DNA of 64,000 bases from contig OZ245033.1 of assembly GCA_965224025.1 (NCBI GenBank), positions 4,640,001 to 4,704,000 of the forward strand, read 5' to 3'. The position numbers and the translations under genes were made by a program. The notes beneath the pieces were generated by a model. It saw nothing but the letters and a program-made list of their open reading frames with translations. It was not told the origin of the DNA and searched no databases. Positions 11,555-45,706 of this stretch are shown here, piece by piece. Source of the stretch: Candidatus Multivorans sp. Its GTDB lineage: Bacteria > Acidobacteriota > Thermoanaerobaculia > Multivoradales > Multivoraceae. The stretch's first letter is position 1. The number at the start of each line of letters is the position of its first letter.

Positions 11555-13387
11555 GTGTCTCGAACCTGTTTGTCGCTTCCGGGAATCGGGCGTCCGATGC
11601 TGGCTTCAGTCGCCGGGGTCCTTGCCCTAGCCGCCGCGGCTCCGGGGAGCCTTGCAGCCGAGGATCCGAAGCTGATCTTCATCGACCGAGCGGCCGAACT
11701 GGGCGTCGACTTCACGCACCACAACGGGATGACGGGCAATCTGTACACTGCGGAGCACATGGGCGGGGCGGTCGCCCTCTTCGACAACGACAACGATGGC
11801 GACCTCGACCTCTACTTGGGCCAGGGCCACCTGCTGGCTCCTGCCGGTGACTCGGGCTCCTCATCGGCCGCCGGGGGCGCCAACGAATCAACGATGAGGG
11901 ACCGCCTGTTCCGCAACGATCTGGAAGGCGGCGTACTGCATTTCACCGACATCACCGAAGAAAGCGGTCTCGACGCACGGGGCTACGCCATGGGCGCCAC
12001 CGTCGGCGACATCGACAACGACGGAGATCCTGATCTCTACATTCTCAACCTGGGGCCGAACGAACTCTGGCGAAACGACTCGCAACCCGGCGTGCCTCGC
12101 TTCACCAACATCACGGCGGGAAGCCAGACTGCCGATCCGCGTTGGAGCGCGGCCGCGAGCTTCTTCGACCTCGACAACGACGGGCTGCTCGACCTCTTCG
12201 TCGGCAACTACGTCGAGTTCCGGATCGCGACGCACAAGCCCTGTTCCTCGGCCCAGGGAATCGTCGAGTACTGCGGACCGAACGCCTTCCGGGGCGAGGC
12301 AAACCGAGTACTGCTCAACCGGGGCGACGGCACGTTCACGGATTGGACCTCCCGACTCGGCATCGCCGACCTGATGGCCGGAACCCTCGGCACGGTGGCT
12401 ACGGACTTCAACGGCGACGGCTGGACGGACATCTACGTGGCCAATGACATGAAGCCGAACCGGCTGCTCCTGAACGAGGGCGGCACAGCCCTCGTCGACG
12501 ATGCCGTACCGGCCGGAGCTGCCGTAAACGGCTCCGGTGAGCCTGAGGCGAGCATGGGAATCGTGGCCCAGGACTTCAACGACGATGGTCTCATGGACCT
12601 GTTCATGACCCACGTCCTCCGCGAGACGAACACGCTGTACATCAACCTGGGAGATGGCATGTGGGAGGACGCCACGCGGGCCAGCGGCCTCGGTTCCCCC
12701 AGTTTCCGATACACCGGTTTCGGCGTCGCCGCCATCGACTACGACCTCGATGGCAACCTCGACCTCTACGTGGCAAACGGCGCCGTCATCCGTATCGAGG
12801 AACAGTTCCGGGCGGGCGATCCGTTCCCCCTGAGACAGCGAAACCAGCTCTTCCGGAGCCTGGGCGGCGGCCGCTTCGAGGAGATCGCCCACTTCGAGGA
12901 CCCAGGTACTCCGGAGGTCAGCCGCGGTGTTGCGCGGGGCGATCTGGACAACGACGGCGACCCGGACCTGGTCGTGGCAAACAACATGGCCGCGGCCTGG
13001 GTGCTGATCAACGAGGCCAAACCCTCGCCCAGCGAGTGGGTCGGAATCGACTTGCGGTCGCCCGGACCCGATCCAGCGGTAGGAGCCCCCCAGGACGACA
13101 AGGAGACGGTCTTCGGGCGGAGGCCGCTTGGTTCCCGCGTTGGGCTGAATCGTGACAGGCAGGGCGCCAGCGTGACTTGGCGGCGCTTCCACACGGACGG
13201 TTCCTACGCCGCGGGCAACGATCCACGGGTTCTGTTCTCTGTCGACGGCGCCGCGTCGCCGTCTGTCGTCGTCTCATGGCCGGACGGCGAGCGGGAGTCC
13301 TTCCTTCTCGATCAGGTCGGCCGTTACTTCACACTGGTCCGCGGTCGCGGAGAGCCGATCGAGGCCAGACCGAAACAGGCACGTTGA
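11555..13387 (+). CDS. CRTAC1-family FG-GAP repeat / ASPIC-UnbV protein, secreted
   Basis: Signal peptide, repeated DxDxDGxxDL Ca-binding FG-GAP motifs, SRGVARGDLDNDGD, C-terminal GSY...V.WPDG UnbV region; start GTG 11555 or ATG 11597. Confidence 0.9.
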   Translation: MSRTCLSLPGIGRPMLASVAGVLALAAAAPGSLAAEDPKLIFIDRAAELGVDFTHHNGMTGNLYTAEHMGGAVALFDNDNDGDLDLYLGQGHLLAPAGDSGSSSAAGGANESTMRDRLFRNDLEGGVLHFTDITEESGLDARGYAMGATVGDIDNDGDPDLYILNLGPNELWRNDSQPGVPRFTNITAGSQTADPRWSAAASFFDLDNDGLLDLFVGNYVEFRIATHKPCSSAQGIVEYCGPNAFRGEANRVLLNRGDGTFTDWTSRLGIADLMAGTLGTVATDFNGDGWTDIYVANDMKPNRLLLNEGGTALVDDAVPAGAAVNGSGEPEASMGIVAQDFNDDGLMDLFMTHVLRETNTLYINLGDGMWEDATRASGLGSPSFRYTGFGVAAIDYDLDGNLDLYVANGAVIRIEEQFRAGDPFPLRQRNQLFRSLGGGRFEEIAHFEDPGTPEVSRGVARGDLDNDGDPDLVVANNMAAAWVLINEAKPSPSEWVGIDLRSPGPDPAVGAPQDDKETVFGRRPLGSRVGLNRDRQGASVTWRRFHTDGSYAAGNDPRVLFSVDGAASPSVVVSWPDGERESFLLDQVGRYFTLVRGRGEPIEARPKQAR

Positions 13388-15372
13388 GCAAGGAGAGGCA
13401 ACGCTCCCTGGGGGTCCCCGCCGCCTTCGTGACGGCGGCGTTCGCGGCCGCGCAGCCGCTTGCCAGCCAGCCCTCGGCAGGTCAAGAGAACCTGGAAACC
13501 GTCCCCAGGCCTCGGACTGACCAGTACGAACAGGTCGTGCGGGACCAGATGGCGGCGGCGCACGACAACGTGAGCCGCCTTCGGAGCGACCCGGAGGCAC
13601 AGCGTGCGGAGCTGGCCGCCGCGTTCGGCCTGCTCGGCCAGCTCTACCTCCTGTACGACTTCCCGGAGCCAGCACGAGCCGCCGTGCAGAACGCGGAGAC
13701 GCTAGATGGGGATGATCCCCGCTGGCCCTACTACCTCGCCGATCTCGCCGCAGCCCAGGGCGACCACGGAGCAGCTGCCACAGCTTTGAATCGTGTCCTC
13801 TCTCTCGATTCGCGCAACATGGCCGCACTCGTTCGCCGCGGCAACGCCCTGTTCGAGTTGGGCCGCTTCGACGATGCGGAGAAGGACTATGCAAGCGTCC
13901 TCGACCGCGTTCCGGGGCAATCCGCGGCACTCTACGGTCTCGGTCGGATCAGCTACGAGCGCGACGAGTTCGATCAGGCGATCGGGCACTTCGAGGCAGC
14001 GATCTCCAACCAACCGGAAGGTTCCGTCATTCACCACCACCTTGGCCTGGCGCTCCGGCGTCTCGGCCGGCGCGATGAGGCGATTGCTCATCTTCAGCAG
14101 AACGAGCACCGGACCGTGGCGTTCCCCGACCCGCTCCGTGACTTGGTGGACCAGCTCAATGCCAGTTCCGAAGCGCACTACTTTCGGGGCACCTCCGCGC
14201 TCCGGCGCGGCGATGCGCGGGCCGCGCTGGATTCCTTCCTCCTCGCGCTCGAGGTCAAGCCGGAGAGTGCCCGGAACGTGTTCAGCGCGGGCCTGGCCCA
14301 GATCGAACTCGGGAACAAGCAGGCTGCCGAGGCGCGGATGCGGCAAGCGCTCGTGCTCGACCCGAACTACCGCGAGCCGCACTTCAACCTAGCCTTGATC
14401 ATGGCGGAACGCAACGACTACCGGGCTGCCGAGCTGCACTTCAGGCGTGCGACAGAGATCGATCCCTCCGATTTCGAGGCGTCGGCGCGGCGCGCGGACG
14501 CCCTGACGCGCCTGGGGCGGGTCGAGGAAGCGATCGAGGTCGCGAAACAAGTGCTGGAAGCGGAGCCGGCGATGCCGGTCGCCCTGCTCACGCTGGGTAC
14601 CGCGTACCACGCAGCCGGCAAAACGGAGCAGGCCCTGGCGACACTGCAGCAGGTCCTCGCGGCCGCGCCCGGAGCACCCCGGGAACGAGCGGAGGCCCAC
14701 TACCGCCTCGCTCTCATCGCGGGCGACAGCCCCGACTTGGCCGACAAGGACGCCCCGACAGGGGAAATCGACAGCGCGAGCGGAGAAGACAACCTACTGG
14801 CCCACGTGCAAAGCGCGGTTGGACTCGACCCCGACCTTACCGAGGCGCGTGCTCTTCTGGGCCGGTTGCTCGCACAACGCGGCCAGTACGCGGAAGCCGC
14901 CGGTCACTTCGCCCGCGCGATCTCCCGCGATCCGGAAAATGGCGGCTGGCATCGCGACCGCGCCATGGCCTTGATCCTGGGCCGTCGCTACGCTGCCGCG
15001 CGGGGCGCGCTGACAAGCGGAGTCGGCGCACTGGAGCGCTCGAATCCCGCATCCTCGGAAACGGCGGTCGGCCATCTGCGGATCCTGCTTTCACGGCTCC
15101 TGTCCACGTGCCCCGATCCGCAGATCCGCGACGGCCGGCAAGCCTTGGCGATTGCCCAGCGACTCATGGCCGACCGCCCCTCCCTCGAACACGCGGAGAC
15201 GATGGCGATGGCCCTGGCCGAGACACGCGACTTCGAACAGGCCACGAACATCCAACGGCAGGTACTGGCCGAGGTGGAGCGCCGCGGCGGTACACCCTCA
15301 GCCGGCCAACGGCAAAGGCTGCGGACCTACCTCGACGGCAGGCCCGCGCGCGAACCGTGGTTCACTCCCTGA
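13384..15372 (+). CDS. TPR repeat protein, secreted
   Basis: Many TPR-like helical repeats; TTG start overlaps the upstream stop; C-terminal LLSTCPDPQIRDG motif. Confidence 0.85.
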   Translation: MSKERQRSLGVPAAFVTAAFAAAQPLASQPSAGQENLETVPRPRTDQYEQVVRDQMAAAHDNVSRLRSDPEAQRAELAAAFGLLGQLYLLYDFPEPARAAVQNAETLDGDDPRWPYYLADLAAAQGDHGAAATALNRVLSLDSRNMAALVRRGNALFELGRFDDAEKDYASVLDRVPGQSAALYGLGRISYERDEFDQAIGHFEAAISNQPEGSVIHHHLGLALRRLGRRDEAIAHLQQNEHRTVAFPDPLRDLVDQLNASSEAHYFRGTSALRRGDARAALDSFLLALEVKPESARNVFSAGLAQIELGNKQAAEARMRQALVLDPNYREPHFNLALIMAERNDYRAAELHFRRATEIDPSDFEASARRADALTRLGRVEEAIEVAKQVLEAEPAMPVALLTLGTAYHAAGKTEQALATLQQVLAAAPGAPRERAEAHYRLALIAGDSPDLADKDAPTGEIDSASGEDNLLAHVQSAVGLDPDLTEARALLGRLLAQRGQYAEAAGHFARAISRDPENGGWHRDRAMALILGRRYAAARGALTSGVGALERSNPASSETAVGHLRILLSRLLSTCPDPQIRDGRQALAIAQRLMADRPSLEHAETMAMALAETRDFEQATNIQRQVLAEVERRGGTPSAGQRQRLRTYLDGRPAREPWFTP

Positions 15373-17081
15373 CCGCCGTCCTGCTCGTGCTGGCGTTCGC
15401 CCCGCCCGCAGAGACGTCGCCCGATGGCGACAGCCTCCGCTTCATCGATGCGGCGGCGGAGTGGGGTGTCGACTTCCGGCACAACCACGGCGGTCGGGGC
15501 GACTTCTTCATGGTCGAGACGATGGGAAGCGGCGTCGTCGCCTTCGACTACGACGGCGACGGCGACGACGACCTGCTGTTTGTCGACAGCGGCCAACCCG
15601 AGCCCTACGGCGGAACTCCTGGGCGAACGACACTGCTGCGAAACGACCGCCTTGGGGAAGGCGGCAGGTTCCTGGACGTGACCGACGCCTCCGGCCTCCT
15701 GCTCGACAGCTACGGCATGGGCGCCGTCGCCGCCGACCTGGACGGCGACGGTGATGAGGACCTCTACCTCACGGCCTTCGGGCCGAACCGACTGCGGCTC
15801 AATCAGGGAGACGGCTCGTTTGGAGCCGCCCCAGCCGCGGATGCCGCCGCCGACCCCTCCTGGAGCGCCTCAGCGGCGTTTGGCGACCTCGATCTTGACG
15901 GCGACCTCGACCTCTATGTGGCGAACTACGTCGACTTCCACTACGACAACAACAAGATCTGCGGAGAGCCGCCGGGTGGGCGCCGTTCCTATTGCCACCC
16001 CGATGTCTACAACGGTCTTGAGGACCGCCTCTACCGCAATGACGGCGGCCACGGAAGCGTCGCCTTCGTCGACGCGACGGCTGATGCGGACCTCGCGGAT
16101 ATCGCCCGGGGCGCTGGTCTGGGGGTCGCGATCCTGGACCTGGACGGTGACCAGAGGCCCGACATCTACGTCGCGAACGACATGGACCCGAATCTCCATC
16201 TGATCAACCGTGGAGGGTCCGCGCTTCGCTTCGAGGACCAGGCGCTCCTGGCCGGCACCGCCACGTCCGATCGCGGCCAGGCCGAAGCCGGCATGGGAGT
16301 GGCGATTGGCGATATCGACGGCAACGGCTTCGATGATCTGATCATCACCCATCTCGACCGGCAGACCAACGCGCTGTACGCCAACCGTGGCGACGGTCTG
16401 TACCTCGATCGCCGGTACGCCGCCGGCATCGCCGAACCCTCCCTGCCCTGGGTCGGTTTCGGCGTCGCGCTGGCCGACTTCGACCTCGACGGCGACCTCG
16501 ATCTGGCGGTCGCGAACGGCCATGTCAGCCACAACTTCGACCGGGGCGCGACTCCCGGCGACGGCCTGACGCAACCCAACCAGCTCTTCGAAAACCGCGG
16601 CGGGCACTTCTCCCAGGTCCAGAACAGCGGCGTGTCCGGCGTGCGGACCAGCCGCGGCCTTGTCACCGCAGACTTCGACCTGGACGGCGATCTCGACATC
16701 GTGATCTCGAACTGCGACGGCCCCGCCGAGGTCTACAGGAACGAGACCACACCGCGCGGCAACGGACTGCAGGTCGACCTGGTCGACCGCGAATCGCCGA
16801 ACCGGCGCGCGATCGGCGGCGTCCTCGAACTGCGAACCTCGGGCACCGTCCAGCGGCGGGTCGTACGAACCGGTTCTTCCTACCTTTCGCAGAATTCCCT
16901 AACCCAAACCTTCGCTTTGCCGGAACTTGGCGACGGCGCGGGTGAAGGCGGCAAGTCCACTCCCGCCGTATCGACCGAGAGGCAAATCGCCGGCCCGCAA
17001 CTCGACGTGCGTTGGCCGGGGGGTGGACGTGTACGCCTCTTGGGCCTGTCCGGGGCCCGGCAGCTCCGGCTGGTTCGCTAG
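15357..17081 (+). CDS. CRTAC1-family FG-GAP / ASPIC-UnbV protein
   Basis: ETMGSGV, DYDGDGDDDL repeats, EAGMGVAIGD, GSSYLSQ, VRWPGG; GTG start overlapping the upstream gene. Confidence 0.9.
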   Translation: MVHSLTAVLLVLAFAPPAETSPDGDSLRFIDAAAEWGVDFRHNHGGRGDFFMVETMGSGVVAFDYDGDGDDDLLFVDSGQPEPYGGTPGRTTLLRNDRLGEGGRFLDVTDASGLLLDSYGMGAVAADLDGDGDEDLYLTAFGPNRLRLNQGDGSFGAAPAADAAADPSWSASAAFGDLDLDGDLDLYVANYVDFHYDNNKICGEPPGGRRSYCHPDVYNGLEDRLYRNDGGHGSVAFVDATADADLADIARGAGLGVAILDLDGDQRPDIYVANDMDPNLHLINRGGSALRFEDQALLAGTATSDRGQAEAGMGVAIGDIDGNGFDDLIITHLDRQTNALYANRGDGLYLDRRYAAGIAEPSLPWVGFGVALADFDLDGDLDLAVANGHVSHNFDRGATPGDGLTQPNQLFENRGGHFSQVQNSGVSGVRTSRGLVTADFDLDGDLDIVISNCDGPAEVYRNETTPRGNGLQVDLVDRESPNRRAIGGVLELRTSGTVQRRVVRTGSSYLSQNSLTQTFALPELGDGAGEGGKSTPAVSTERQIAGPQLDVRWPGGGRVRLLGLSGARQLRLVR

Positions 17082-17109
17082 CTCCTGCGGCGCTAGCATG
17101 CTGGCCACG

Positions 17110-19299
17110 ATGAACCGCCGCGCACGAACCGACTCGCACCGTCGAACCGCAATCCTGGCCTTACTGCTGGCCCTGCTGTTAGCACCGGAGGCGCCCGGCG
17201 CCCAGGACCTTCCCCAGCCCCTGGAGGACGCGATGGGCCGAGCCCAGAGCGGCGACCTCCTCGGCGCCATCGAGATCCTGGAGGCATTCCGTGCCGGCGG
17301 CGACGCGCCCGACGCCGCCTTCGCCGCTCTCGGCGCCCTTTACCTCGAAGCGAGAAACCCGCGGAGGGCGATCGAGGTGCTCCTGCCGCTTTCCCGGCGA
17401 CCGCGGCCCGATCCGGCCGTCCTCTTCAACACCGGCCGAGCGGCCGAAGCGCTGGGGCGTTTCACGGATGCGGTCGCCTTCTACCGGCGCTCCGTCACGA
17501 TCGACGACTTCTCGCCCGCCGTGCGCGCACTCGGCATGCTGCTCGGACGGCTCGGACGTCCCGAGGACTCGTACGAGTTCCTCAAGACCTGGCTCGAAGC
17601 GAACTCAAACGATTACACCGCCCGGATCGCGGCGGCAGCGGGCGCCGTGGACCTCGGGCTAGTGGACGAAGCGGCGTCGCTGATCGAGGGCCTGCCGCGC
17701 TACGCCCCCGCGATCCGACTGCTCCACGGACAGATCCTCCTTCGGCGCGACGATCCGTGGGGAGCTCTCGGCCAACTCCAACCTCTGGCCGAAGAGCCTC
17801 CGCCGGCTCTCGAACTCGACGTCCGGCGCAGCCTCGCCGACATCTGGCTGCAGGTCGGCGACCCCGACGCCGCGATCGGGCAGATGGAGTTGATCCCACC
17901 CGGCGCTCCCTCGGACACCCTCCAACTGGCAAGCGCCTACTTCCAGGCCGGCCGAACCGGGGACGCAATCGAAGCCCTGGCGCCACTGGCGGAGCCGCTG
18001 GTAGGCAGCCAACCACCGGACGATCCCGGATCGCTGGCGCTGAACGTGCTCATCGACTACGGCCGCTACCTGCAGTCGGCGGGCGACATCCGCCGGGCTC
18101 TGCCCTTCCTGCAACTTGCCACTGAGATCGGTCCGGACTTTCCCGAGGCGTTCGAGGCGCTCGCTGACGGCCTCGAAGCCGGCGGTCGGCCAGCCGAGGC
18201 GACCGCGGCCCGGGAGCGCTACGAAACGCTGACCGCCGCGCCGCAACCGAGCGTCACTCCCTTCGAACTCGCGGTCCGCCCCAACGATCCGGTCGCTCGA
18301 GGGATCCGCGAGGCACTGGAGCTGGCGTTCTCGGGCGAAGCCGACGCGGCTCTCGAACGGCTCGCCCGGCAGATCGTCCAGGCACCCGGCGATCCACGGC
18401 CCGCCTACGTCAGGTCATCGATCCTGCTTCAGAGTGGCCGCGCGGAAGAAGCTCTCGAAGCAGCCGACCGGGCCCTCGGGATCGCCCCCGGACGCGCCGA
18501 CGGCCTGTACCAGCGGGCGGTGGTCCTGATGGCGCTGCAACGTTTCGCGGAAGCCGAGGACATGTTTCGCGACGCCCTCGAAGTTGCTCCGGAACACCCG
18601 GCCGTGCTTTCGGACTACGCCGTGCTGCTGATCGGCACGGCGCGAAGCGACGAAGCCGCCGACCTGCTCACGCGGTTGGTCGAACAGAGGCCGAACGACT
18701 CACGCGTTCTCGCCATGTTTGGGCGTTCCCTTCTTGACGCCCGAAGATTCCAGGAGGCCGAAGAGCCGCTGCGACGGGCCGCCGGCCTCGATCCCCAGAA
18801 CGCCGCGATCCTCCTCGACCTCGCTTCAGCCCTCTGGGAAGAGAACCGGCCGGCAGAAGCGGAGCAGTGGGCCCGCGAAGCCACGGCGCTAGCGCCCGAC
18901 GCCTCGGCTGGACATAGACTGCTGGGAGCGCTTCTCCTCTGGCGAGGCGACTACCTGGAGGCCGCAGCATCTCTCGAGCAGGCCAGTACGAGGGAGAGGG
19001 AGGATCCCGAGCTGGCGCTCGAACTCGCCCGCGCCTGGGAGGGCGCCGCCGACCAGACCGAGGATGCCGCTGAAGAGCAGGCCCGCCTGAAGCGAGCCGA
19101 GACCGCTTACCGCCAAGCGGCGGCGTGGGCGCCCGAGCACGCGGAGGTCGCCTACGGTCTGGCCCAGGTTCTGCGCCGGCTCGGCCAGGACCAGGAGGCT
19201 TCCGCCCAGATGGACCGCTACCGTGAACTCTACGAGCAGGATCAGCGCCAAACCCGCGAACAGGGCCTCGGAGCCTCCGAGCCCGACGCCCACGAGTAG
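17110..19299 (+). CDS. TPR repeat protein, secreted
   Basis: Signal peptide (RTAILALLLALLLA...AQ) followed by numerous TPR repeats. Confidence 0.85.
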   Translation: MNRRARTDSHRRTAILALLLALLLAPEAPGAQDLPQPLEDAMGRAQSGDLLGAIEILEAFRAGGDAPDAAFAALGALYLEARNPRRAIEVLLPLSRRPRPDPAVLFNTGRAAEALGRFTDAVAFYRRSVTIDDFSPAVRALGMLLGRLGRPEDSYEFLKTWLEANSNDYTARIAAAAGAVDLGLVDEAASLIEGLPRYAPAIRLLHGQILLRRDDPWGALGQLQPLAEEPPPALELDVRRSLADIWLQVGDPDAAIGQMELIPPGAPSDTLQLASAYFQAGRTGDAIEALAPLAEPLVGSQPPDDPGSLALNVLIDYGRYLQSAGDIRRALPFLQLATEIGPDFPEAFEALADGLEAGGRPAEATAARERYETLTAAPQPSVTPFELAVRPNDPVARGIREALELAFSGEADAALERLARQIVQAPGDPRPAYVRSSILLQSGRAEEALEAADRALGIAPGRADGLYQRAVVLMALQRFAEAEDMFRDALEVAPEHPAVLSDYAVLLIGTARSDEAADLLTRLVEQRPNDSRVLAMFGRSLLDARRFQEAEEPLRRAAGLDPQNAAILLDLASALWEENRPAEAEQWAREATALAPDASAGHRLLGALLLWRGDYLEAAASLEQASTREREDPELALELARAWEGAADQTEDAAEEQARLKRAETAYRQAAAWAPEHAEVAYGLAQVLRRLGQDQEASAQMDRYRELYEQDQRQTREQGLGASEPDAHE

Positions 19300-21572: not shown

Positions 21573-22550
21573 TCAGAGCGATTCCAGATACTCCGCGAAC
21601 TGCTTCGCCTCATCGGCCTTCTCGCCCTCCGGCTCGAGTTCGAGCAGCCGGCGGAAGTCGGCTGCCGCCGCCGCGTTCTCGCCCGCGGCCATGTTCGCCA
21701 ACCCCCGGAAGTAGTAGGCTTCGGCCCAATCCGGTTTGGACTCGATGACCGCGTCGAACCTGCCGAGCGCACCCTTGAAGTCGTTCTGGTTGTACAGGTC
21801 GACTCCCTCACGGAGCAGAATCTCGGGGTCCGCGCGCAGCTCTTCCGGCAAACGCCGCAGGTATTGCCGCGCCTCGTCGTTGCGACCCAGCGCGGCCAAA
21901 CGCCGACTCATCAACTGAAGGGCGTCCACGTTGGTCGGCGCATAGCCAAGCGCCTTCTCCAGACTGGCCAGTGCCTCGTCCTCCCGATCCAGTTGTATCT
22001 GCGCTTGAGCGATCGCGACCAGTACCGCCGCCTTGCCGCCGTCGCCCAATGACGGCAACGCTTCGTTGAAGAGCGCCATGGCGCCTTCGAAGTCCCCTGA
22101 CAGCAGCAGGTCGTTGCCGCGCTCCAACGACTCGCGTGCGGCCTGGCCCGACTCGCCTTCGTCCAGGGCTGCCGCCGATCCGTCGGTCACCTCCTGGCCC
22201 CCAGGCTCAAGAGCCGTCTTGACGAACGGTCTCTCAGCGGCCGTCGCGTATTCGTTGAGTCGTACCGTGTGCTGACTGGGGATGTACCCCGGCTTCGTCA
22301 CGAAGACTTCCCAACTGCCGCCCGCCAGGCCGGCCCGCGCCCACCGGCCCTTCTTGTTCGTCAGAACTTCCTCCGCGGGTCCGACACCGTCGAGGGTCAA
22401 CTTGACGCTCGCCCCTTCGACCGGATTGCCTTCCAGATCGGCCACGCCACCGCTGAGTCGACCCCGGCCCACCCAGGCCTGGGCCGAAACCGCCGAGGTC
22501 AAAAGGATGCCGGCCAAGACCGCCACGGCAACACGGGTTCGATAGGTCAT
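21573..22550 (-). CDS. Carboxypeptidase-regulatory-like domain + TPR protein, secreted
   Basis: AGGAGG RBS at 22555-22560; signal peptide; GRLSGGVADLEGNPVEGASV...GYIP prealbumin-like domain; C-terminal TPRs. Confidence 0.85.
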   Translation of the reverse strand: MTYRTRVAVAVLAGILLTSAVSAQAWVGRGRLSGGVADLEGNPVEGASVKLTLDGVGPAEEVLTNKKGRWARAGLAGGSWEVFVTKPGYIPSQHTVRLNEYATAAERPFVKTALEPGGQEVTDGSAAALDEGESGQAARESLERGNDLLLSGDFEGAMALFNEALPSLGDGGKAAVLVAIAQAQIQLDREDEALASLEKALGYAPTNVDALQLMSRRLAALGRNDEARQYLRRLPEELRADPEILLREGVDLYNQNDFKGALGRFDAVIESKPDWAEAYYFRGLANMAAGENAAAAADFRRLLELEPEGEKADEAKQFAEYLESL

Positions 22551-31910: not shown

Positions 31911-31965
31911 GTGGGGGCCATCGCGGCCCCCACTTCGCCCGCGCCCGGCTCGGGCTAGCCGAGCC
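31911..31965. terminator. Two adjacent hairpins between convergent genes
   Basis: GTGGGGGCC/GGCCCCCAC (31911-31933) and GGCTCGG/CCGAGCC (31947-31965). Confidence 0.5.
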
Positions 31966-38644: not shown

Positions 38645-39189
38645 TTCAGCTTCAGGGTTCGGCTGACCATCTGAGGCAGGCCGGAGACATCGCCGGCCGG
38701 CGTCCACACCTCGACCGTCTCGCCGTCCTCTTCGACCTCGGACACTTCAACCCACCGCGCTTCACGCAGCCGGACCAGCACTTCCAGGTTGCCGTCGGCC
38801 GGCGCCGGACGCCCGGTTTCCGAGGTCCAGAAGTTGTAGAGCGCCACCCCATCCGATTCGCCGGCTTCGATCACTTGCAGAAAGAGCTGTTTCTCGTAGA
38901 CGGGTAGTGCCCGACCGTTCAACTCGACATCGAAGCCGAAGCTGTACACATCCCGCTGGCCGGCGTTCCTGACCCGTGCGGTCAACCGGCACAGGGTTTC
39001 CGGGCCCGGCGTCGCGGGCGTGATCTCGATACTCTCGAGGATGACCTCAGCCTCCTCTGCCCAGGCGCCAGCCGCGAGAGCGAGAAGGCTGAACAGGGAC
39101 CACGCGATGAATGGCGGCTGACCGGCTGAGACCAACCGTGACCTGATTCTGGCGCCGGAAGTCCGGTCGCCGAGCCCTCCGTTCAGCAC
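38641..39189 (-). CDS. Secreted hypothetical protein, possibly Ig/CARDB-like beta-sandwich
   Basis: Signal-peptide-like segment, LTARVRNAG...F.VELNG beta pattern; translationally coupled to the sulfatase gene; start uncertain. Confidence 0.6.
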   Translation of the reverse strand: MLNGGLGDRTSGARIRSRLVSAGQPPFIAWSLFSLLALAAGAWAEEAEVILESIEITPATPGPETLCRLTARVRNAGQRDVYSFGFDVELNGRALPVYEKQLFLQVIEAGESDGVALYNFWTSETGRPAPADGNLEVLVRLREARWVEVSEVEEDGETVEVWTPAGDVSGLPQMVSRTLKLK

Positions 39190-39216
39190 GGTATGGATAA
39201 TACCGACGGGATTCTC

Positions 39217-40671
39217 ATGAAGACTCCAGCCTCGCTCCTTCGCCTGACCGCCGCGGCCTCGTGCCTGGCCCTGCTCAGCCCGGTCGCGACCACGGCCCAG
39301 ACCCGGAAGATGGAGGATCCGCTGGCCGTCAGGCCGTCGTATCCCACACTCGACGGCAGGGCTTCCAGAACCCCGAGCGCGGGCGGAGTCTACGAGCGGC
39401 TTCGGCGTCTGATGTCGGACAAGCAGAAGGTGAGGCGCAAAGCCGCCCGAGCGCTCGGCAAGACCGATCCCGCGACCCTGATCCCCCTGGTCGACGCCTA
39501 CTTCTTCTCACCCAGCAAGGCCCGCGCCGACGTCCGGAGCGTCCTCGAGGAACTCTCGGGCGAACAGTTCGGCGATCGCTACCGGGACTGGTTCGTGTAC
39601 GTCGGCGGCCGCCAGGACATCGAGCCGCCGCGCGGCTACGTCGCTTGGAAGGGAGAGCTGTTCTCACGCATCGACCCCGTCTACCAGCGCATTCTCAGCC
39701 CCGAAGCCGAAGCAACGGTCCGGCTGCGGCTGCGGGAAGTCCAGTGGGGCGGTGTCCCGCTGGACGGAATCCCGGCGGTCGACGACCCCGTCTCGGTTCC
39801 GGCCGACACGGCCAGCTTCATGCGGGACACCGACACCGTGTTCGGCGTCGAGCTGGGCGGCGAACGGCGCGCCTACCCGGTCAAGGTGCTTGGTTGGCAC
39901 GAACTTCTGAACGACACCGTGGGCGGCCAACCCATCACCCTTTCCTTCTGCACTCTCTGCGGCTCCGGCATCCTCTATTCGGCGGTCGACGAACACGGCG
40001 TGCGGCTCAAGTTCGGCACCTCGGGCTTGCTCTACCGCTCGAACAAGCTGATGTTCGACCGGGCCACGCTCAGCCTGTGGAGCAATCTGACTGGCGAGGC
40101 GGTCGTCGGAGAACGCGCCGCCGGAGGCGCCACGCTGACCATGCTGCCGATGACGCTGACGCGATGGAACGCGTGGCTGAGGCGCCACCCGGACACAACC
40201 GTGATGCGACCCGAACCCGAGACCGCGAGGCGTACCGGCTACCGCTACGTCGAGGGTGCGGCCGACCGAGCGCGGAGCGGAGTCGAGTTTCCCGTCTGGC
40301 GGCAAAGCGACGCGCTGGAGCGGAACGCACGCATCTATGCCCTGCGCATAGGCGGCAAGGCCAAGGCCTACCCGATGGAGAAGCTGCGCACCGAGCGACT
40401 CGTCAACGATACGCTGGGAGGCGTACCGATCGTGCTCGTCCTCGACGAAGAAAGCGGCGCGATTCGGGCCTACGAGCGTGGCAGCCTGATCTTCAGGCCG
40501 CCAGCCGAAGGGACCCTGCGCGAGATCCAGGCAAAGGACGGATCGAGATGGATGATCGCCGAACCGGGCCTCGCGCCGGAAGCTGGCGGTGAGTTGTTGT
40601 CCCGCATCGCCGGCCACGTCGCGTTCTGGTTCGGCTGGTACGCCTTCTACCCGGACACGGAGGTGTACTGA
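39217..40671 (+). CDS. DUF3179-domain protein, secreted, CxxC form
   Basis: GGVPLDGIPAVDDP, RAYP...WHELLND, FCTLCGSG, FGTSGLLYRSNKLMFDR, FWFGWYAFYPDT. Confidence 0.85.
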   Translation: MKTPASLLRLTAAASCLALLSPVATTAQTRKMEDPLAVRPSYPTLDGRASRTPSAGGVYERLRRLMSDKQKVRRKAARALGKTDPATLIPLVDAYFFSPSKARADVRSVLEELSGEQFGDRYRDWFVYVGGRQDIEPPRGYVAWKGELFSRIDPVYQRILSPEAEATVRLRLREVQWGGVPLDGIPAVDDPVSVPADTASFMRDTDTVFGVELGGERRAYPVKVLGWHELLNDTVGGQPITLSFCTLCGSGILYSAVDEHGVRLKFGTSGLLYRSNKLMFDRATLSLWSNLTGEAVVGERAAGGATLTMLPMTLTRWNAWLRRHPDTTVMRPEPETARRTGYRYVEGAADRARSGVEFPVWRQSDALERNARIYALRIGGKAKAYPMEKLRTERLVNDTLGGVPIVLVLDEESGAIRAYERGSLIFRPPAEGTLREIQAKDGSRWMIAEPGLAPEAGGELLSRIAGHVAFWFGWYAFYPDTEVY

Positions 40672-40694: not shown

Positions 40695-42293
40695 TCACCG
40701 ATCCTCCAGCGGACGCGGCGGCCCCAGTAGACGGCGCAGTTCCGTGGCCCCACTTCCCTCGCGAACGACCTCCCGGTTCCCAATCATCAGCAGCACCACG
40801 CCGTCCGGGTCGAGGAAGCGCTCCGCCGCGCGCCGTACGTCCGCCGAGGTCACGGCATGCAGACGCCGCCGGTAGTGAGCCCAGTACTCGTGAGGCCGTC
40901 CCAGCAACTCGTCCTCGGCGTAGACGCCGGCAATCGCCTCCGCGCGGTCGAAGAGCAGTGGAAAACGGGCCAACACCGACCGTTTCGCGGTCTCGAGTTC
41001 GCCGGCCGGCGCGGCATCCCGCTGCAGCCGCCGCAGTTCCCGCAGCACCTCGGCGACAGCCTCGGCGGCAGCCTCGGGCGCGGTCTCCAGGAAGACGCGG
41101 AACTCGCCCGCGTGCTCCGACCCCCAACCGCTCCGCGGGGGATCGATGTCGAAGGTCGTCAGCAGGCGGTAGACCAGGCCGTCACCGAGCTGCAGACGGG
41201 ACCGCAGGCGAGACACGGCGCCGGGGCCGTCGAGGATCTCGGTCAGCAGCAGCAGCGCCCAACGGTCGCGGTGGTCCCATGAATCGAAGACCGCTCCCCG
41301 GTGGCCGATGGCGATCGCGGCCTGGGCGCCCGGGCGATCCACGGTCCACCAACCCGGCGCCGCGGCCGAGGCCGCCGAATCGCCCGCTTGCCCCACGCCC
41401 ACTTCGTCCGCCTCCGGTCCGCGGGCGCTTGGACCGGCCGCTGCCCGGTCGACTTCGTCGGGCCCCGTCCAATCGCCGAACAGCTCATCCAGGCGAGCCA
41501 CCACGGCTTCGGCATCCACGTCGCCCGAAACGGCGAACACGGCGCCCTCGGGGCGGTAGCGACGGCGATGGAAGTCGGCGAGCGCCTCGGGCGTGAAGGC
41601 AACCACCGCCTCGCGCGTCAGCCGCCGTCCGCGCGGTGCACGGTCTCCATGCACCAGGCGCAGCCACTCCCGTTCGAGGAACCGCCGCGGGTCGTCGTCC
41701 TGGGCGGCGAGGCTGACCTCGAGGTTGTCCTTCGCCTGAGCCAGGCGCTCCGCGTCGAAGCGCGGCTCGAGCACGATGGAAGCAAACAGTTCAAGACCGC
41801 GACCCAAGGCTTCCGAACCGCAGTCGAGGGCGATCACGCTCCGCGCCGAGGCACCCACCGTCTGGATCCGGGCGCCCAGGGCGTCGATTTCGTCGTCCAG
41901 ACGGTCCGGGTCCATGTCGCCGGCGCCCCCGCGACGCAGCATGGCAGCGGTCATCGAGGCCAGTCCTGCCTCCGCGGGCCGCTCGTCCGGATCGCCGACC
42001 GGAAACGCCAGCACGACATCTACCAGGGGCAAGCTGCGATCCGGCACGACGTAGACTGGCAGCCCGTTGGCCAGTTCGAAGAGCATGCCGTCGGGACTCG
42101 GCGGCGCGAAGGCCGACGGAGGAAAACGCAGGCCTTCCGGGCGCGGCGGAATCTGGGCGCCTCCTGCTGCTCCCGCCACGGTCAGGCCGAGCAAGACGAA
42201 CAGACTGAGCACCGGCGCCAGCCCCGGATGCGGGCGGGACGCCCGCGTTCCCAGGACCGGAGTCGCGTACCGTGCCACGCAAGCTGCCGGCAC
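40695..42293 (-). CDS. M16 (pitrilysin-family) peptidase, non-catalytic subunit
   Basis: LANGLPVYVV, GLASMTAAMLRRG (no HxxEH), FHRRRYRP...GDV, SRL motif, VTSADVRRAA. Confidence 0.85.
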   Translation of the reverse strand: MPAACVARYATPVLGTRASRPHPGLAPVLSLFVLLGLTVAGAAGGAQIPPRPEGLRFPPSAFAPPSPDGMLFELANGLPVYVVPDRSLPLVDVVLAFPVGDPDERPAEAGLASMTAAMLRRGGAGDMDPDRLDDEIDALGARIQTVGASARSVIALDCGSEALGRGLELFASIVLEPRFDAERLAQAKDNLEVSLAAQDDDPRRFLEREWLRLVHGDRAPRGRRLTREAVVAFTPEALADFHRRRYRPEGAVFAVSGDVDAEAVVARLDELFGDWTGPDEVDRAAAGPSARGPEADEVGVGQAGDSAASAAAPGWWTVDRPGAQAAIAIGHRGAVFDSWDHRDRWALLLLTEILDGPGAVSRLRSRLQLGDGLVYRLLTTFDIDPPRSGWGSEHAGEFRVFLETAPEAAAEAVAEVLRELRRLQRDAAPAGELETAKRSVLARFPLLFDRAEAIAGVYAEDELLGRPHEYWAHYRRRLHAVTSADVRRAAERFLDPDGVVLLMIGNREVVREGSGATELRRLLGPPRPLEDR

Positions 42294-42296
42294 CGC

Positions 42297-43871
42297 TTAG
42301 CCCTCCCCGGTCCGCTCTAGCGACAGGACGGCTCGTTTCTCCGCCACGAGAAAGGCGTCGATCACCCGCACCAGGTCATCGGCGCCAACCGCGGCCGCCG
42401 CCTCGAACCACCCATCCAGTTGCCGCCAGCCGCCCAGTACTTCGGCCGCCGCCAGCCGGTGGGCGAGTCCAGCGTCGGTTTCGATCTGCCGGAAGGAGTC
42501 GGTGGCCAGTTGGCGCCGAACCCGCTCCAGCTCCTCGCGTTCGACGCCGTCCGCCCGAACCCGCGCCAGCAGGCGGTCCCACGCCGGGAGCAGCTCCGCC
42601 AACTTCGTGTCGCCGGCAGCCTCGACGCGCACCGCGAAGTAGCCCCCGTGGATCCGCGACACATGCCGCGCCGAAGCCGAGGTTGCCACCGCGTCATCCG
42701 CGAGCACGAGCCGACGATGCAGCCGGCCCGAGCGGCCGTTCAGTACGCCCGCCAGCACATCCAGGGCGACTGCGTCACCCGAAGCCGCAAAGGCCACGGT
42801 GGGATAGCGGATCTCGATCTGCGTGCGGCAGGCGCAGAGTCCGTCCAGCGACCCGAGAGCGGGCGAGGGAGACGGCGAGCCCAGGGGTTGCGGACTCGCC
42901 GGTCTGCTCGGTACGGAACGCGGGAGAGGCGCCGCCGTTCCCGGATCTCCCCGCCGGCGAGAGGCCTCGGTTCGCGAAGCCCGTCCCGAGCCACGGCTGA
43001 TGCGGCCGAAGTAGCGCTCGGCCAGTTCCCTGGCGCGCTCCGGCGCCACGTCGCCGACCAGCACCGCGACCAGCCGCTCCGGCCCGTAGGCCGCCTTGAA
43101 GTGCGCCCGCGCGTCCGCCGGCAGGAGGCCCGCGATCTCCAGCCGGTCTCCTCCCGGCGTGTGGGCGTAGGGATGGCCCGCGCCCCAGAAGGCGGCGTCG
43201 AAGAGCTCGAACCACGAACCCGCCGGACTCGAATCGATGCGCTGCCGACGCTCCTGCTCGACCATCCGCAACTCACGCTCGAAGCCGCGGAACACGGGCT
43301 CGAGCAACCGGTCGGACTCCATCCAGAACCACAGCTCGATCTTCTCCGCGGGCGCCAGTACCTGGAACACGGTCGAGTCGTGCCGCGTCTCCGCGTCGAG
43401 GCCGAAGGCACCGGCACGGGTGTAGACCGTCGAGTACTCGCCCGGCCGCCGCAGCGCCGCCAGCCGTCGTTCCAGGCGGGCAAGGCCCTGCGTGGTCCGG
43501 CGCCGCCGCAGGGACTCCTCGTATTGCCGCTCCCACTGCCGCAGGAGCCGCGCCTCCGCGTCCCAGTCCGCGGTGCCGACGGTCCGGCTGCCGGCGAACA
43601 GCAGGTGCTCCACCAAGTGGGCCAGACCCCGCTGACCCGGCGGATCCGCCGCCGAACCGCCCCGCGCCGCCCACACGGCGGAGACCAAGGGCCTCCCGGG
43701 CCGCTCGACGACCAGGAAGGTCATGCCATTGTCCAGTTCGAAGTGAGCGGGCTGGAGTTCGGCCGGCAACGTCGCGGGCGCCGCAGGCGCTGCCGCGGCA
43801 AGAACCAGAACGGCGAGGAAGCTGCGCCGCAGAACGATCCGTCCCTGGGAACGCGCGAATCTTGCCCGCAT
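42297..43871 (-). CDS. M16 (pitrilysin-family) peptidase, catalytic subunit
   Basis: LDNGMTFLVV, GLAHLVEHLLFAGS (HxxEH), ESDRL, ERRQR, HPY, GRSGRL. Confidence 0.85.
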   Translation of the reverse strand: MRARFARSQGRIVLRRSFLAVLVLAAAAPAAPATLPAELQPAHFELDNGMTFLVVERPGRPLVSAVWAARGGSAADPPGQRGLAHLVEHLLFAGSRTVGTADWDAEARLLRQWERQYEESLRRRRTTQGLARLERRLAALRRPGEYSTVYTRAGAFGLDAETRHDSTVFQVLAPAEKIELWFWMESDRLLEPVFRGFERELRMVEQERRQRIDSSPAGSWFELFDAAFWGAGHPYAHTPGGDRLEIAGLLPADARAHFKAAYGPERLVAVLVGDVAPERARELAERYFGRISRGSGRASRTEASRRRGDPGTAAPLPRSVPSRPASPQPLGSPSPSPALGSLDGLCACRTQIEIRYPTVAFAASGDAVALDVLAGVLNGRSGRLHRRLVLADDAVATSASARHVSRIHGGYFAVRVEAAGDTKLAELLPAWDRLLARVRADGVEREELERVRRQLATDSFRQIETDAGLAHRLAAAEVLGGWRQLDGWFEAAAAVGADDLVRVIDAFLVAEKRAVLSLERTGEG

Positions 43872-43912
43872 CCGGCGCGAAGCGGTCGCGTTGGAGATGG
43901 CGCTGTGACTCC

Positions 43913-45706
43913 TCACCGCCGCTCCTGGACCACCAGGTAGACGCCCGACGGCGGATCGACGATGCGGGTCCGGGCGCCGGAGGGCCACCGCACGTCGAGC
44001 CGGCGGAAGGCGCCGGCGCCGGCCGCCGGGACGTTGCCGGACGCCGCCGCAGCCCAGCGGAGCCGATGTCCGCTCGACGACTGGTAGCTGTCGCCCCGCA
44101 GCACCCAGCGGTGAGCCGGCGGCTTCCCGGGCTCGGCGGCGAGCGTCACGGCGGCGCCCACCGCCTGTGTGTTCGACCCGGCGCCGCGCAGCTCGACGCC
44201 GAGCCAACCGCCACCTTCCGGCCCTGCCGTGTCATTCCGCCCCGTGTCGCTGCGCCCCGTCTCGTTCCGCCAGAGGCGCGCCGGACCGTCGTTGGCGGTA
44301 ACCACGAGGTCGCCGTCGCCATCGCCGTCGTAGTCCGCGACTGCGGCGCCGCGGCTGACCAGCGGATCCCGATCCGTCCAGTCGCAGCGCACTTCGATGA
44401 AGCTCTGGCGGGGGTCCGCCGCGTTGCCGCGGAGCAGCAGGTTGCGCTGCCGGTGGCTCGTGTTGTCGCGCCGGGGCGTAGTGAAGATGTGCCCGTTGGC
44501 GACGTACACATCGAGCGCGCCGTCCCTGTCGAAGTCCTCGGTCACGATCCCGAATCCGAGCAGGTTGAAGGAGGGCTGACCGAAGCCGGACACGGCCGAT
44601 ACGTCCTCGAACAGAAGGCCGCCGCCGGCGCCGGCATTGCGAGCGCCGGCATTGCGGTAGAGCGTGTTCGTCTCGACATCGAAGTTGGTCACCATGAGAT
44701 CCGGATCGCCGTCGGAATCGAAGTCGGCAGCCGCCAGCCCCATGCCTGCCTCCGGCCGGCCGTTTCGATTCACGGCAGCGCCCGACAACAGCGACTGATC
44801 CTCGAACGTGCCGTCGCCCCGGTTGCGGAACACGAGGTTCAGGGTCAGATCGTTGGCCACGTAGAGATCGGGCCGGCCGTCTCCATCGAGGTCGGTGAAG
44901 ACCACCCCGAGACCCTTGCCGTCGGCGCCGTCGAGACCGGCCGCCGCCACTCCGTCCTCGAAGACGCCGCCGCCCCGGTTCACGTAGTAGCGGTCGTGCT
45001 GGCCCAGGAACAGCGACGGATCGCACACCTCCGGCGCGGCGCCGGGACCGTCCCGCCGGCAGACCAGGCCGTGGTCCGGGTCGTAATGGAGGTAGCGGCT
45101 GACGTAGAGGTCCAGGTCGCCGTCGCCGGCCGCATCGGCAAGGGCCATCGAGGAACCCCACGGGAACTCGTCCGCCCCTCCCTCCGGCTCGGCCGCTCGC
45201 AGCGGTTCCGCCGCGGCGAATGCGCCGTGTCCGCCATTGCGCAAGAGCATAGTGGGACCGTAGTGCGACACCAGCAGGTCGACGTCCCGGTCGCCGTCGA
45301 CATCGGCGGCGACGACTCCCTGGCCGTAGCCGCGGGCAAGGCCGCCGGCGTCGGCCGGCTCGAAGCGGATCTTCCCCGCGGCGTCGGGCCCCAGGTTGCG
45401 AAACAGCCGGTCCGCCGCCGCCTCGCCACGCTGCGGCGGGAACGGCCCCGACTGCACCAGGTAGAGGTCGAGCCAGCCGTCACCGTCGAAGTCGATCCAG
45501 GCGACGCCCGCGCCCATCGTCTCGGGCAGGTGCAGGCCGCCGCTCGCGCCCGATTCGTGGACGAAGCGCACACCGGCCTCCACCGCCACCTCCGTGAACG
45601 TGAAGCCGCAATCCTCACTGCCGGCGGCGCCGAAAGGGAGGACGAAGGCGCACGCCAGCGTCGCGACGTGGGCGACCGACGAGGCGCCGCCGGCGTCCCG
45701 GCTCAT
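43913..45706 (-). CDS. CRTAC1-family FG-GAP / ASPIC-UnbV protein
   Basis: PETMGAGVAWIDFDGDG, GKGLGV, ANDL, EAGMG, SRGAAVADYDGDGD, GDSYQS, VRWPSG. Confidence 0.9.
   Translation of the reverse strand: MSRDAGGASSVAHVATLACAFVLPFGAAGSEDCGFTFTEVAVEAGVRFVHESGASGGLHLPETMGAGVAWIDFDGDGWLDLYLVQSGPFPPQRGEAAADRLFRNLGPDAAGKIRFEPADAGGLARGYGQGVVAADVDGDRDVDLLVSHYGPTMLLRNGGHGAFAAAEPLRAAEPEGGADEFPWGSSMALADAAGDGDLDLYVSRYLHYDPDHGLVCRRDGPGAAPEVCDPSLFLGQHDRYYVNRGGGVFEDGVAAAGLDGADGKGLGVVFTDLDGDGRPDLYVANDLTLNLVFRNRGDGTFEDQSLLSGAAVNRNGRPEAGMGLAAADFDSDGDPDLMVTNFDVETNTLYRNAGARNAGAGGGLLFEDVSAVSGFGQPSFNLLGFGIVTEDFDRDGALDVYVANGHIFTTPRRDNTSHRQRNLLLRGNAADPRQSFIEVRCDWTDRDPLVSRGAAVADYDGDGDGDLVVTANDGPARLWRNETGRSDTGRNDTAGPEGGGWLGVELRGAGSNTQAVGAAVTLAAEPGKPPAHRWVLRGDSYQSSSGHRLRWAAAASGNVPAAGAGAFRRLDVRWPSGARTRIVDPPSGVYLVVQERR

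Follow-up and report, generated by a model that had tools for sequence, protein, structure and literature searches.

Within a stretch of 64,000 nucleotides from Candidatus Multivorans sp. (contig OZ245033.1, positions 4,640,001 to 4,704,000; hereafter the window), 18 genes follow one another from 11555 to 45706, among them the gene of an Oar-type TonB-dependent receptor. Twelve of these genes constitute a conserved module, which we tentatively read as a system for the TonB-powered uptake of a macromolecular substrate. Genes were chosen by third-position G+C (guanine plus cytosine) and by domain content, using Pfam and NCBIfam scans of the open reading frames (ORFs) of the window, the G+C of which is 64–72%. 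An earlier note on this DNA had claimed 18 consecutive genes at 11555–45706 for exported proteins of a particular set of families, and the scans bear this out. The run of 18 genes is recovered, a hydrophobic signal-like segment is found by eye at the N-terminus of 18/18 proteins, and the three propellers, the tetratricopeptide repeat (TPR) proteins, the receptor, the three von Willebrand factor A (VWA) proteins, the M12 protease, the DUF3179 protein and the M16 pair are all found again in Pfam or NCBIfam. The genes and regulatory features are as follows.

11555..13387, plus strand: g01, CRTAC1/UnbV-type FG-GAP beta-propeller; start GTG 11555 or ATG 11597
13384..15372, plus strand: g02, exported TPR protein (TPRa) with many TPR families in Pfam
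15357..17081, plus strand: g03, second CRTAC1/UnbV propeller (Pfam)
17098..19299, plus strand: g04, exported TPR protein (TPRb; Pfam)
19306..21495, minus strand: g05, sulfatase-fold lipoprotein with C-terminal TPR (SulfTPRa; Pfam), last gene of the receptor operon
21573..22550, minus strand: g06, exported CarboxypepD_reg plus TPR protein (Pfam), directly downstream of the receptor
22729..25632, minus strand: g07, Oar-type TonB-dependent receptor (CarboxypepD_reg, Plug and OMP_b-brl_4 in Pfam)
25748..25763, minus strand: predicted sigma-54 type promoter TGGCAT-N5-TTGC, ~115–130 nucleotides upstream of the receptor ATG
25846..25860, no strand: palindrome GCGCCA-N3-TGGCGC, candidate site of an enhancer-binding protein
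26087..26113, plus strand: conserved promoter-like block CAAC-N17-CGTACA, abutting the annotated g08 start
26118..27332, plus strand: g08, putative transglutaminase/papain-like plus TPR lipoprotein (TPRc), first gene of the divergent operon
27409..29643, plus strand: g09, VWA1 (TIGR03436)
29723..31897, plus strand: g10, VWA2 (TIGR03436)
31965..34526, minus strand: g11, M12 metzincin plus fn3 plus duplicated C-terminal domain (Pfam)
34592..36451, minus strand: g12, VWA3 (TIGR03436), convergent with VWA2
36461..38644, minus strand: g13, second Thr-type sulfatase-fold plus TPR lipoprotein (SulfTPRb; Pfam)
38641..39135, minus strand: g14, small exported hypothetical protein; its stop overlaps the g13 start
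39217..40671, plus strand: g15, exported DUF3179 protein (Pfam, 4.4e-71)
40695..43871, minus strand: g16 and g17, M16 peptidase pair (Pfam)
43913..45706, minus strand: g18, third CRTAC1/UnbV propeller (Pfam)

The overlaps that had been claimed between genes are real by coordinates, at 13384–13387 (4 nucleotides, g01/g02), 15357–15372 (16 nucleotides, g02/g03) and 38641–38644 (g13/g14). The region as a whole comprises at least six transcription units on alternating strands. Genes g14 and g15 are divergent, and because their spacer (39136–39216) measures at most ~80 nucleotides, their promoters must overlap. No glycoside hydrolase is present among the 18 proteins, as had been stated, and neither an inner-membrane transporter nor a cytoplasmic enzyme was found among them (Pfam, NCBIfam). 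The flanks in the window, on the other hand, encode cytoplasmic housekeeping enzymes, including enolase, a pyridoxal phosphate decarboxylase, FolP, FolB, FolK and an acyl-CoA dehydrogenase. An Rfam scan of the whole window gave 0 matches, and with them no riboswitch that would point to a substrate.

Conservation of the arrangement was followed in a genome-collection scan anchored on the receptor g07, which returned 52 loci with 10-kb flanks. All neighbourhood data refer to this one anchor and these flanks; g14–g18, at least 13 kb from the anchor, lie outside them. Every window protein was compared with the 52 loci by tblastn, and Pfam was applied to the ORFs left unassigned. The loci belong to metagenome-assembled genomes titled Thermoanaerobaculia, Candidatus Multivoraceae or Multivorans, Holophagales, or Acidobacteria/Acidobacteriota, with the exception of one Vicinamibacteraceae and one "uncultured bacterium". 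They fall into 35 close loci, 6 distant loci with the cluster and 11 loci with a solo paralogous receptor, and the receptor identity ranges from 91% down to 45–47%. The counts for each gene or family are given below; those of SulfTPRb and VWA3 in the close clade are lower bounds, as both genes sit close to where the retrieved sequence ends.

g08 (TPRc): close 34/35, distant 6/6, solo 0/11
VWA1: close 33/35, distant 5/6, solo 0/11
VWA2: close 33/35, distant 5/6, solo 0/11
g06, CarboxypepD_reg-TPR: close 32/35, distant 5/6, solo 0/11
SulfTPRa: close 32/35, distant 5/6, solo 0/11
SulfTPRb: close at least 13/35, distant 6/6, solo 0/11
VWA3: close at least 26/35, distant 1/6, solo 0/11
Any TPRa or TPRb: close 32/35, distant 4/6, solo 1/11
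Any CRTAC1: close 31/35, distant 3/6, solo 1/11
M12: close 19/35, distant 0/6, solo 1/11

The receptor keeps the same neighbours in 41 of the 52 loci, down to 45% receptor identity (tblastn). In the conserved arrangement the transglutaminase-like TPR lipoprotein, VWA1 and VWA2 are divergent from the receptor, while the CarboxypepD_reg-TPR protein and then one or more sulfatase-fold-TPR proteins follow downstream of it, usually along with VWA3 and CRTAC1/TPR pairs. The TPRb gene g04 was found in 32 of the 35 close loci, and an orthologue of g03 in 25, the closest relatives (L001, L002, L004 and L006) being among those that miss it. The few absences of TPRc, VWA1, VWA2, the CarboxypepD_reg-TPR protein and SulfTPRa concern loci truncated by contig ends (L002, L012, L037, L046), the locus L018 with its insertion sequence (IS) elements, and L007, where there is an inversion. 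Beside the distant clusters, Pfam revealed additional TPR and CRTAC1 genes among the ORFs that tblastn had left unassigned.

The solo loci, partly from the same genomes as the cluster, provide the comparison. None of the 11 carries a transglutaminase-TPR, VWA, CarboxypepD_reg-TPR or sulfatase-fold-TPR gene, and only one TPR/CRTAC1 pair and one M12-like ORF were observed among them. Since these four partner families are missing there, the adjacency is not explained by simple gene density. Taken with the housekeeping flanks, the recurrence of the core order in 41/52 related loci places the clustering beyond chance.

The position of SulfTPRb is informative as well. In 5 of the 6 distant loci it follows SulfTPRa as the next gene of the receptor operon (in the sixth, the truncated L037, it is on the opposite strand), whereas in the 13 close loci where it was found, it lies beside VWA3. 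Evidently, SulfTPRb changed operon but stayed in the cluster. The cluster genes were not dispersed by inversions (L007, L008) or by IS elements, and the flanks differ by clade, with GH3, PhyH and thiolase genes in L033 as compared with OrnDC in the window. The move of SulfTPRb, the rearrangements without dispersal and the differing flanks argue for selection rather than mere inheritance. As to the insertions themselves, IS21-type IstA/IstB and other integrase genes separate the receptor from the CarboxypepD_reg-TPR gene in L018 (14597–19156) and L019 (14289–17617), and two ORFs of 480 and 250 amino acids in L020 (13783–18579) have the size and arrangement of the IS21 genes of those two loci. 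In L018 no cluster genes were found inside the flank downstream of the insertion.

In the receptor tree, a clade of 36 rows that includes the window has the cluster in every row, and in a second clade, of 18 rows, cluster copies stand among solo duplicates of recent origin. Tandem receptor duplicates occur in some distant genomes (L034, 6510–12919; L038, 6307–12907; L051, 7194–18404). The solo copy L035 is the sister of one tandem copy of the same genome, from which we infer that the receptor duplicates and disperses without its partners.

Conserved co-occurrence, which the earlier note had offered as a check on the cluster, was thus observed for 12 of the 18 genes, g01–g10, g12 and g13, which represent ~10 families and make up a conserved module of Thermoanaerobaculia-type Acidobacteriota. 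It was not observed for the M12 protease, which by its distribution (19/35 close against 0/6 distant loci) is a lineage-specific insert and, within the module, a late addition. None of the 52 loci matched g14–g18, which lie outside the flanks, and these genes may be mere neighbours of the module. A homologue of g14 was not found in the 52 loci, in most of which it would be out of range, nor where SulfTPRb directly follows SulfTPRa. The receptor-centred core is, on the strength of its conserved order, probably one working unit.

By its domains, g07 is an Oar-type TonB-dependent receptor with an N-terminal CarboxypepD_reg domain (56 bits against a Pfam cut-off of 32.3), a plug (Plug, 26.5 against 23.9) and a large barrel (OMP_b-brl_4, 65.3 against 30). 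Ahead of the plug, the stretch ETITVTSESPL is conserved across 56 sequences, and from its likeness to the TonB-box consensus we take it to be the TonB box. The N-terminal domain of g06 is weakly similar to that of the receptor (31% over 70 residues, E 0.002). A PDB sequence search with the receptor gave nothing usable, and no TonB or ExbBD gene was found in the window (Pfam, NCBIfam).

The spacer between the receptor and g08 was aligned for 16 sequences and contains several conserved islands within otherwise diverged sequence. One of these is the predicted promoter of the receptor operon, a conserved sigma-54 type site that reads TGGCATACCCCTTGC at 25749–25763 (the pattern match spans 25748–25763) and is the sole match in the window; PMC8743547 gives the sigma-54 consensus as TGGCACnnTTnTTGC. 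The site is exact in 40 and has one mismatch in 3 of the 43 cluster copies of the receptor, as compared with 3 exact, 3 with one mismatch and 5 absent in the 11 solo copies. The NtrC-like palindrome GCGCCA-N3-TGGCGC lies ~97 nucleotides upstream of it, at a constant distance in 34 of the 35 close loci (no mismatch in 12, one in 17, two in 5, absent in 1), and was not found at the equivalent position in the distant or solo loci. It has the same 6-N3-6 layout as the E. coli NtrC box, TGCACCAnnnTGGTGCA in PMC8743547, and agrees with it at 10 of 14 specified bases. No gene for a sigma-54 activator was found in the window. A second perfect palindrome, GCGCCACGATGGCGC, with the same half-sites as that upstream of the receptor promoter, is present at 46236–46250, outside the 18 genes. 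It lies ~65 nucleotides upstream of an ORF at 45767–46171 and is not accompanied by a sigma-54 promoter; by our own estimate, ~0.03 perfect copies are expected in the window.

On the g08 side of the spacer, the block CAAC-N17-CGTACA is kept in 16/16 aligned sequences, occurs once in the window and is matched in 0/100 shuffles. It resembles the promoters used by extracytoplasmic-function sigma factors. Because this block and the sigma-54 pattern each occur only once in the window, no regulon links the other units.

The block also bears on the start of g08, as it ends 4 nucleotides before ATG 26118 and most of the g08 homologues listed cover only ~87–93% of the window ORF; the true start is therefore probably downstream of this ATG. 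The label transglutaminase, which g08 had been given earlier, finds no backing in the Pfam score, as Transglut_core reaches 17.5 bits (E 0.005) where the gathering cut-off is 23. What supports a transglutaminase-like assignment is instead an invariant Cys/His/Asp triad together with the predicted fold. C142, H183 and D198 are invariant in 41/41 g08 sequences, and in the AlphaFold model (predicted local distance difference test, pLDDT, 81.5) Cys142 stands at the N-terminus of helix 142–155 while the strands 182–190 and 193–198 hold His and Asp. The N-terminal domain of g08 is thus probably a transglutaminase/papain-like enzyme. Among the g08 homologues listed, PF01841 is precomputed on 3 of 120, and the sole name given to them is "tetratricopeptide repeat protein". 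In the PDB, a profile built on the transglutaminase-like domain had no match, and in Foldseek TPR matches dominate the hits to the g08 model, the N-terminal domain receiving no informative match. The lipobox Cys is kept across the orthologues of g08 and likewise of g05 and g13.

The two latter proteins are full-length paralogues, 34% identical, and had been described as sulfatase-fold-TPR fusions. The fold and the fusion are confirmed (for g05, Sulfatase 6.9e-42 and Phosphodiest 4.1e-13 in Pfam), and the best sequence matches to the catalytic domain are choline sulfatase and arylsulfatases; the signature of a formylglycine sulfatase, however, is missing. PMC12421950 gives the S1 sulfatase signature as C/S-X-P/A-X-R, along with the metal ligands. 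In g05 and g13 the CxPxR site aligns to T-L-P-S-H, which puts Thr in the place of the formylglycine-precursor Cys/Ser and His in that of Arg. This motif is invariant in 38/38 SulfTPRa sequences, as are the metal ligands D51 and D257-H258, and the motif is likewise unchanged in those SulfTPRb sequences that reach the region. Judging from the replaced signature, proteins of the g05/g13 type cannot form formylglycine and are not canonical formylglycine sulfatases. They share the fold and the Asp and Asp-His metal ligands with the S1 enzymes but, unlike these, are anchored as lipoproteins and extended by a TPR tail of ~300 residues. In the phosphoryl-transfer branches of the alkaline-phosphatase superfamily the nucleophile is as a rule Thr, and transferases of the Sulfatase Pfam family, for example EptA and LtaS, typically have it too. 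On the basis of this Thr, g05 and g13 are predicted to be phosphoesterase-type enzymes. Outside the 18 genes, the right flank of the window contains an NPP-type phosphodiesterase followed by a YdjC-like gene (53498–55123) and a separate 722-residue protein with Sulfatase and Sulfatase_C domains (60731–62899).

The three VWA proteins score 148.5 (VWA1), 154.1 (VWA2) and 190.7 (VWA3) bits against TIGR03436, the NCBIfam cut-off being 81.25, and VWA2 is a paralogue of VWA1 with 35% identity. In the VWA1 model (pLDDT 75.9), a small beta-sandwich at the N-terminus is followed by a VWA fold, into which a long helix is inserted, and by two C-terminal immunoglobulin (Ig)-like sandwiches. The best Foldseek matches of the model are the biofilm scaffold RbmA, the pilus-tip VWA adhesins PitA, SpaC and Mfa5, an integrin, and transglutaminase C-terminal barrels, at low template modelling scores and with several domains in the model. 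Over its D-x-S-x-S motif, the metal ion-dependent adhesion site (MIDAS) appears near-intact in VWA1, with DLTFS in the window and DxSxS in 30 of 39 orthologues; the corresponding stretches are degenerate in VWA2 (DLFFT) and VWA3 (DNLNL). A complex prediction for VWA1 (57–475) with VWA2 (48–462) gave a score of 0.04 and a mark of 0.32, values that count neither for nor against binding. The PDB sequence search with VWA3 yielded nothing usable, and the ESM Atlas search with VWA1 yielded unnamed acidobacterial clusters only.

The three propellers match FG-GAP_3 with E values of 8.5e-43 (g01), 7.6e-37 and 3.8e-38, and all three stand barely above the UnbV_ASPIC cut-off of 23.4 (24.7, 24.0 and 24.7). 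g01 also matches PDB 9etn, human cartilage acidic protein 1 (CRTAC1), with E 7e-13. Directly upstream of g18 and on the same strand, the earlier note had missed an ORF of 134 residues (45767–46171, minus), with an N-terminal hydrophobic helix followed by a coiled-coil with near-repeats and only weak, apolipoprotein-like Pfam matches. In the M12 protein g11, HExxHxxGxxH is kept in 20/20 sequences, and the C-terminal duplication ascribed to it is confirmed (57% identity, E 5e-47). Both members of the M16 pair have M16 and M16_C domains, with HLVEH in g17 and no HxxEH in g16, and they fit the M16B heterodimer pattern of one subunit with and one without HxxEH. For the DUF3179 protein g15 (E 4.4e-71) no PDB relative was found, and for g14 there is a weak CARDB lead (E 0.0022) beside sub-threshold leads in the ESM Atlas. 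Peptidases also occur outside the cluster, namely an S10 carboxypeptidase (3–1511), an S9 prolyl oligopeptidase (49600–51771) and an M20 peptidase (62279–63454), so that the wider region is peptidase-rich with S10, S9, M20, M12 and M16 members. The ~3 kb from 1512 to 4673 gave no confident gene call, with overlapping ORFs of middling third-position G+C and, as the single match, a sub-threshold DUF7309 at 2249–3241.

As to the function, we infer from sequence that the module may serve the TonB-powered capture, processing and uptake of a macromolecular substrate; we put the probability of this at about 0.4, and import is a best guess to which the export or display of adhesins is the main rival. 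Four parts would work together: (i) the operon with the putative sigma-54 promoter, encoding the receptor, the CarboxypepD_reg-TPR protein and one or two Thr-type sulfatase-fold TPR lipoproteins; (ii) the divergent operon of the transglutaminase/papain-like TPR lipoprotein, VWA1 and VWA2; (iii) VWA3; and (iv) the CRTAC1-propeller/TPR pairs. The VWA-Ig proteins and the FG-GAP propellers would bind a polymer, which the Cys-His-Asp lipoprotein would cleave, in this lineage also the M12 protease and possibly the M16 pair. Phosphoester-type decorations would be removed by the Thr-type lipoproteins of the alkaline-phosphatase superfamily, the TPR domains would tether partner proteins at the receptor, and the receptor would import the products. 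An enhancer-binding protein at the NtrC-like palindrome might activate the operon, perhaps under nitrogen limitation. The substrate would most likely be a proteinaceous or phosphoester-bearing polymer. Import is suggested by the plug, the barrel and the TonB-box stretch, by the retention of the catalytic residues, by the adhesin-like fold of VWA1 and by the peptidase-rich window. The sigma-54 promoter and the candidate NtrC-like site are compatible with the scavenging of nitrogen or peptides, which is only a lead.

Several observations weigh against uptake. The cluster contains no inner-membrane transporter, cytoplasmic catabolic enzyme, SusD-like protein, TonB/ExbBD or regulator (Pfam, NCBIfam); a utilisation locus does not usually lack all of these, and their absence suits a machine residing in the envelope just as well. 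TPR scaffolds or TPR-tailed proteins account for six of the 12 core genes, a feature shared with secretion and assembly machines. The solo paralogues show that the receptor subfamily can work without the partner genes, and 3 of these 11 copies also have the exact sigma-54 motif. Only VWA1 among the three VWA proteins has the MIDAS-like D-x-S/T-x-S, the likeness to the NtrC box is partial and its reference comes from a distant organism, and no promoter motif was found that the receptor operon has in common with the other transcription units of the window. Moreover, all related loci belong to one class, and part of the synteny could reflect common descent.

An export, display or assembly machine is a possible explanation, if one that we hold to be on the unlikely side. 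A TonB-energised receptor would here move or expose the VWA-Ig proteins, perhaps with the propellers as integrin-like partners, as adhesins or matrix; the Cys-His-Asp lipoprotein would mature or cross-link the VWA proteins, with the TPR proteins as periplasmic scaffolds or chaperones. Nearly all characterised TonB-dependent receptors import, which speaks against it. That all products are exported and none is an inner-membrane transporter or a cytoplasmic enzyme agrees with such a machine, as do the adhesin- and integrin-like matches of VWA1 and an abundance of TPR proteins otherwise known from pilus, gliding and polysaccharide-export machines, to which, however, the NCBIfam matches lie far below the cut-offs. 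There are also precedents in Myxococcus, where, according to bioRxiv 10.1101/2020.07.22.216333, Oar is needed for protease secretion and the gliding machine has an outer-membrane module that presents the VWA lipoprotein CglB. Nevertheless, no homologue of Glt, Agl or PopC was detected among the 18 proteins (Pfam, NCBIfam), no sorting tag can be recognised on the VWA proteins, the signal peptides of which are ordinary, and it is not obvious what two conserved esterase-type enzymes in the receptor operon would do in display.

Alternatively, small independent units of expanded families could be kept together by ancestry or by shared regulation of exported proteins, with no joint mechanism, which we consider unlikely. 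The six or more transcription units on alternating strands, the differing types of the two divergent promoters with no motif common to the other units, the origin of all loci in one class and the differing CRTAC1 and TPR gene content between clades are what such a collection would be expected to show. In addition, VWA, TonB-receptor and ASPIC/UnbV families are among the paralogous families of Solibacter usitatus, according to PMC3174227. Against this stand the gene order, kept to 45% receptor identity while the flanks change, the switch of SulfTPRb from one operon to another inside the cluster, the failure of inversions and IS elements to scatter the genes, and the 11 solo loci with none of the four partner families.

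A bolder proposal would go beyond plain export. It sees an undescribed surface machine, TonB-energised and sigma-54-controlled, that would export and display integrin-like binding units of VWA-Ig and FG-GAP proteins, with the transglutaminase-like lipoprotein maturing or cross-linking them and the Thr-type enzymes editing them. Such a system would serve adhesion or the building of a matrix and would have no relation to pili, gliding machines or known secretion systems; we regard it as quite unlikely. Envelope maintenance, in which the Thr-type lipoproteins and the TPR proteins would remodel lipopolysaccharide, capsule or the like in the manner of YejM-LapB with the receptor and VWA proteins as accessories, is highly improbable: it is favoured by NCBIfam matches that are weak and fall well short of the cut-offs, to LapC/YejM for g13 (E 3.8e-4) and to LapB for the TPR parts, and by a Thr nucleophile typical of EptA and LtaS, but the catalytic domains are nearer to S1 sulfatases (arylsulfatase 1.6e-34 against MCR 5e-4, NCBIfam), g05 and g13 are without the membrane domain that EptA/LtaS-type transferases need for their lipid donor, and the three VWA proteins would be left without a role.

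Returning to the uptake reading, a comparison with known systems shows partial likeness to several. Sus-like loci have, as here, a CarboxypepD_reg-type receptor co-transcribed with lipoproteins and exported enzymes and accompanied by Ig-like binding proteins. The present locus, in contrast, has no SusD, glycoside hydrolase, lyase, inner-membrane transporter or dedicated regulator (Pfam, NCBIfam), and the partners are VWA, TPR, transglutaminase-like and Thr-type sulfatase-fold proteins under a putative sigma-54 promoter. The Fus system of protein import consists of the TonB-dependent receptor FusA and the M16 protease FusC, and a receptor with an exported M16 peptidase would fit protein import and processing; here, however, the M16 pair belongs to another operon, at a distance of 15 kb from the receptor, and no gene resembling FusB or FusD is present.

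Among systems nearer to export, the Oar of Myxococcus xanthus has the overall domain architecture of g07 (CarboxypepD_reg, plug and large barrel) and makes export a real possibility; no subtilisin-type cargo is encoded in our cluster. The Agl-Glt gliding machinery brings together a VWA protein, TPR scaffolds, outer-membrane barrels and Ton/Tol-like energy, but the matches to GltE reach 18–50 bits against a cut-off of 225, and the VWA proteins here are not lipoproteins and have Ig-like tails. The Bat operon (Bacteroides aerotolerance) encodes the VWA proteins BatA and BatB, the TPR proteins BatC and BatE, a MoxR ATPase and a DUF58 protein, and no receptor. Tandem VWA genes beside genes for exported or membrane TPR proteins are common to it and the present locus, whereas neither a MoxR ATPase nor a DUF58 gene turned up in the window and BatC reaches 43.8 bits against a cut-off of 175. 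We know of no report of Oar with neighbours like those of g07. Assignments to the Bat operon, PEP-CTERM/PrsT, type IV pilus and gliding TPR families were ruled out, the NCBIfam scores being far below the cut-offs. No published account of the gene combination was found, in a literature search that covers few subscription journals, nor was a paper on TIGR03436, on CRTAC1 with TonB-dependent receptors in Acidobacteria, or on Candidatus Multivorans.

Few exported protein families of Acidobacteriota are as strongly expanded and as poorly understood as the Oar-type receptors, the TIGR03436 VWA proteins, the CRTAC1-like propellers and the TPR-tailed sulfatase-fold proteins. In this locus a representative of each has stayed linked to the others across a broad evolutionary range, under a recognisable promoter. 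The locus is therefore a concrete handle for assigning function, as it offers a defined gene set and a regulatory site leading to a signal. Furthermore, the counts of "sulfatases" in such genomes include Thr-type enzymes that, by their signature, are not formylglycine sulfatases, which matters for the inference of metabolism from metagenomes.

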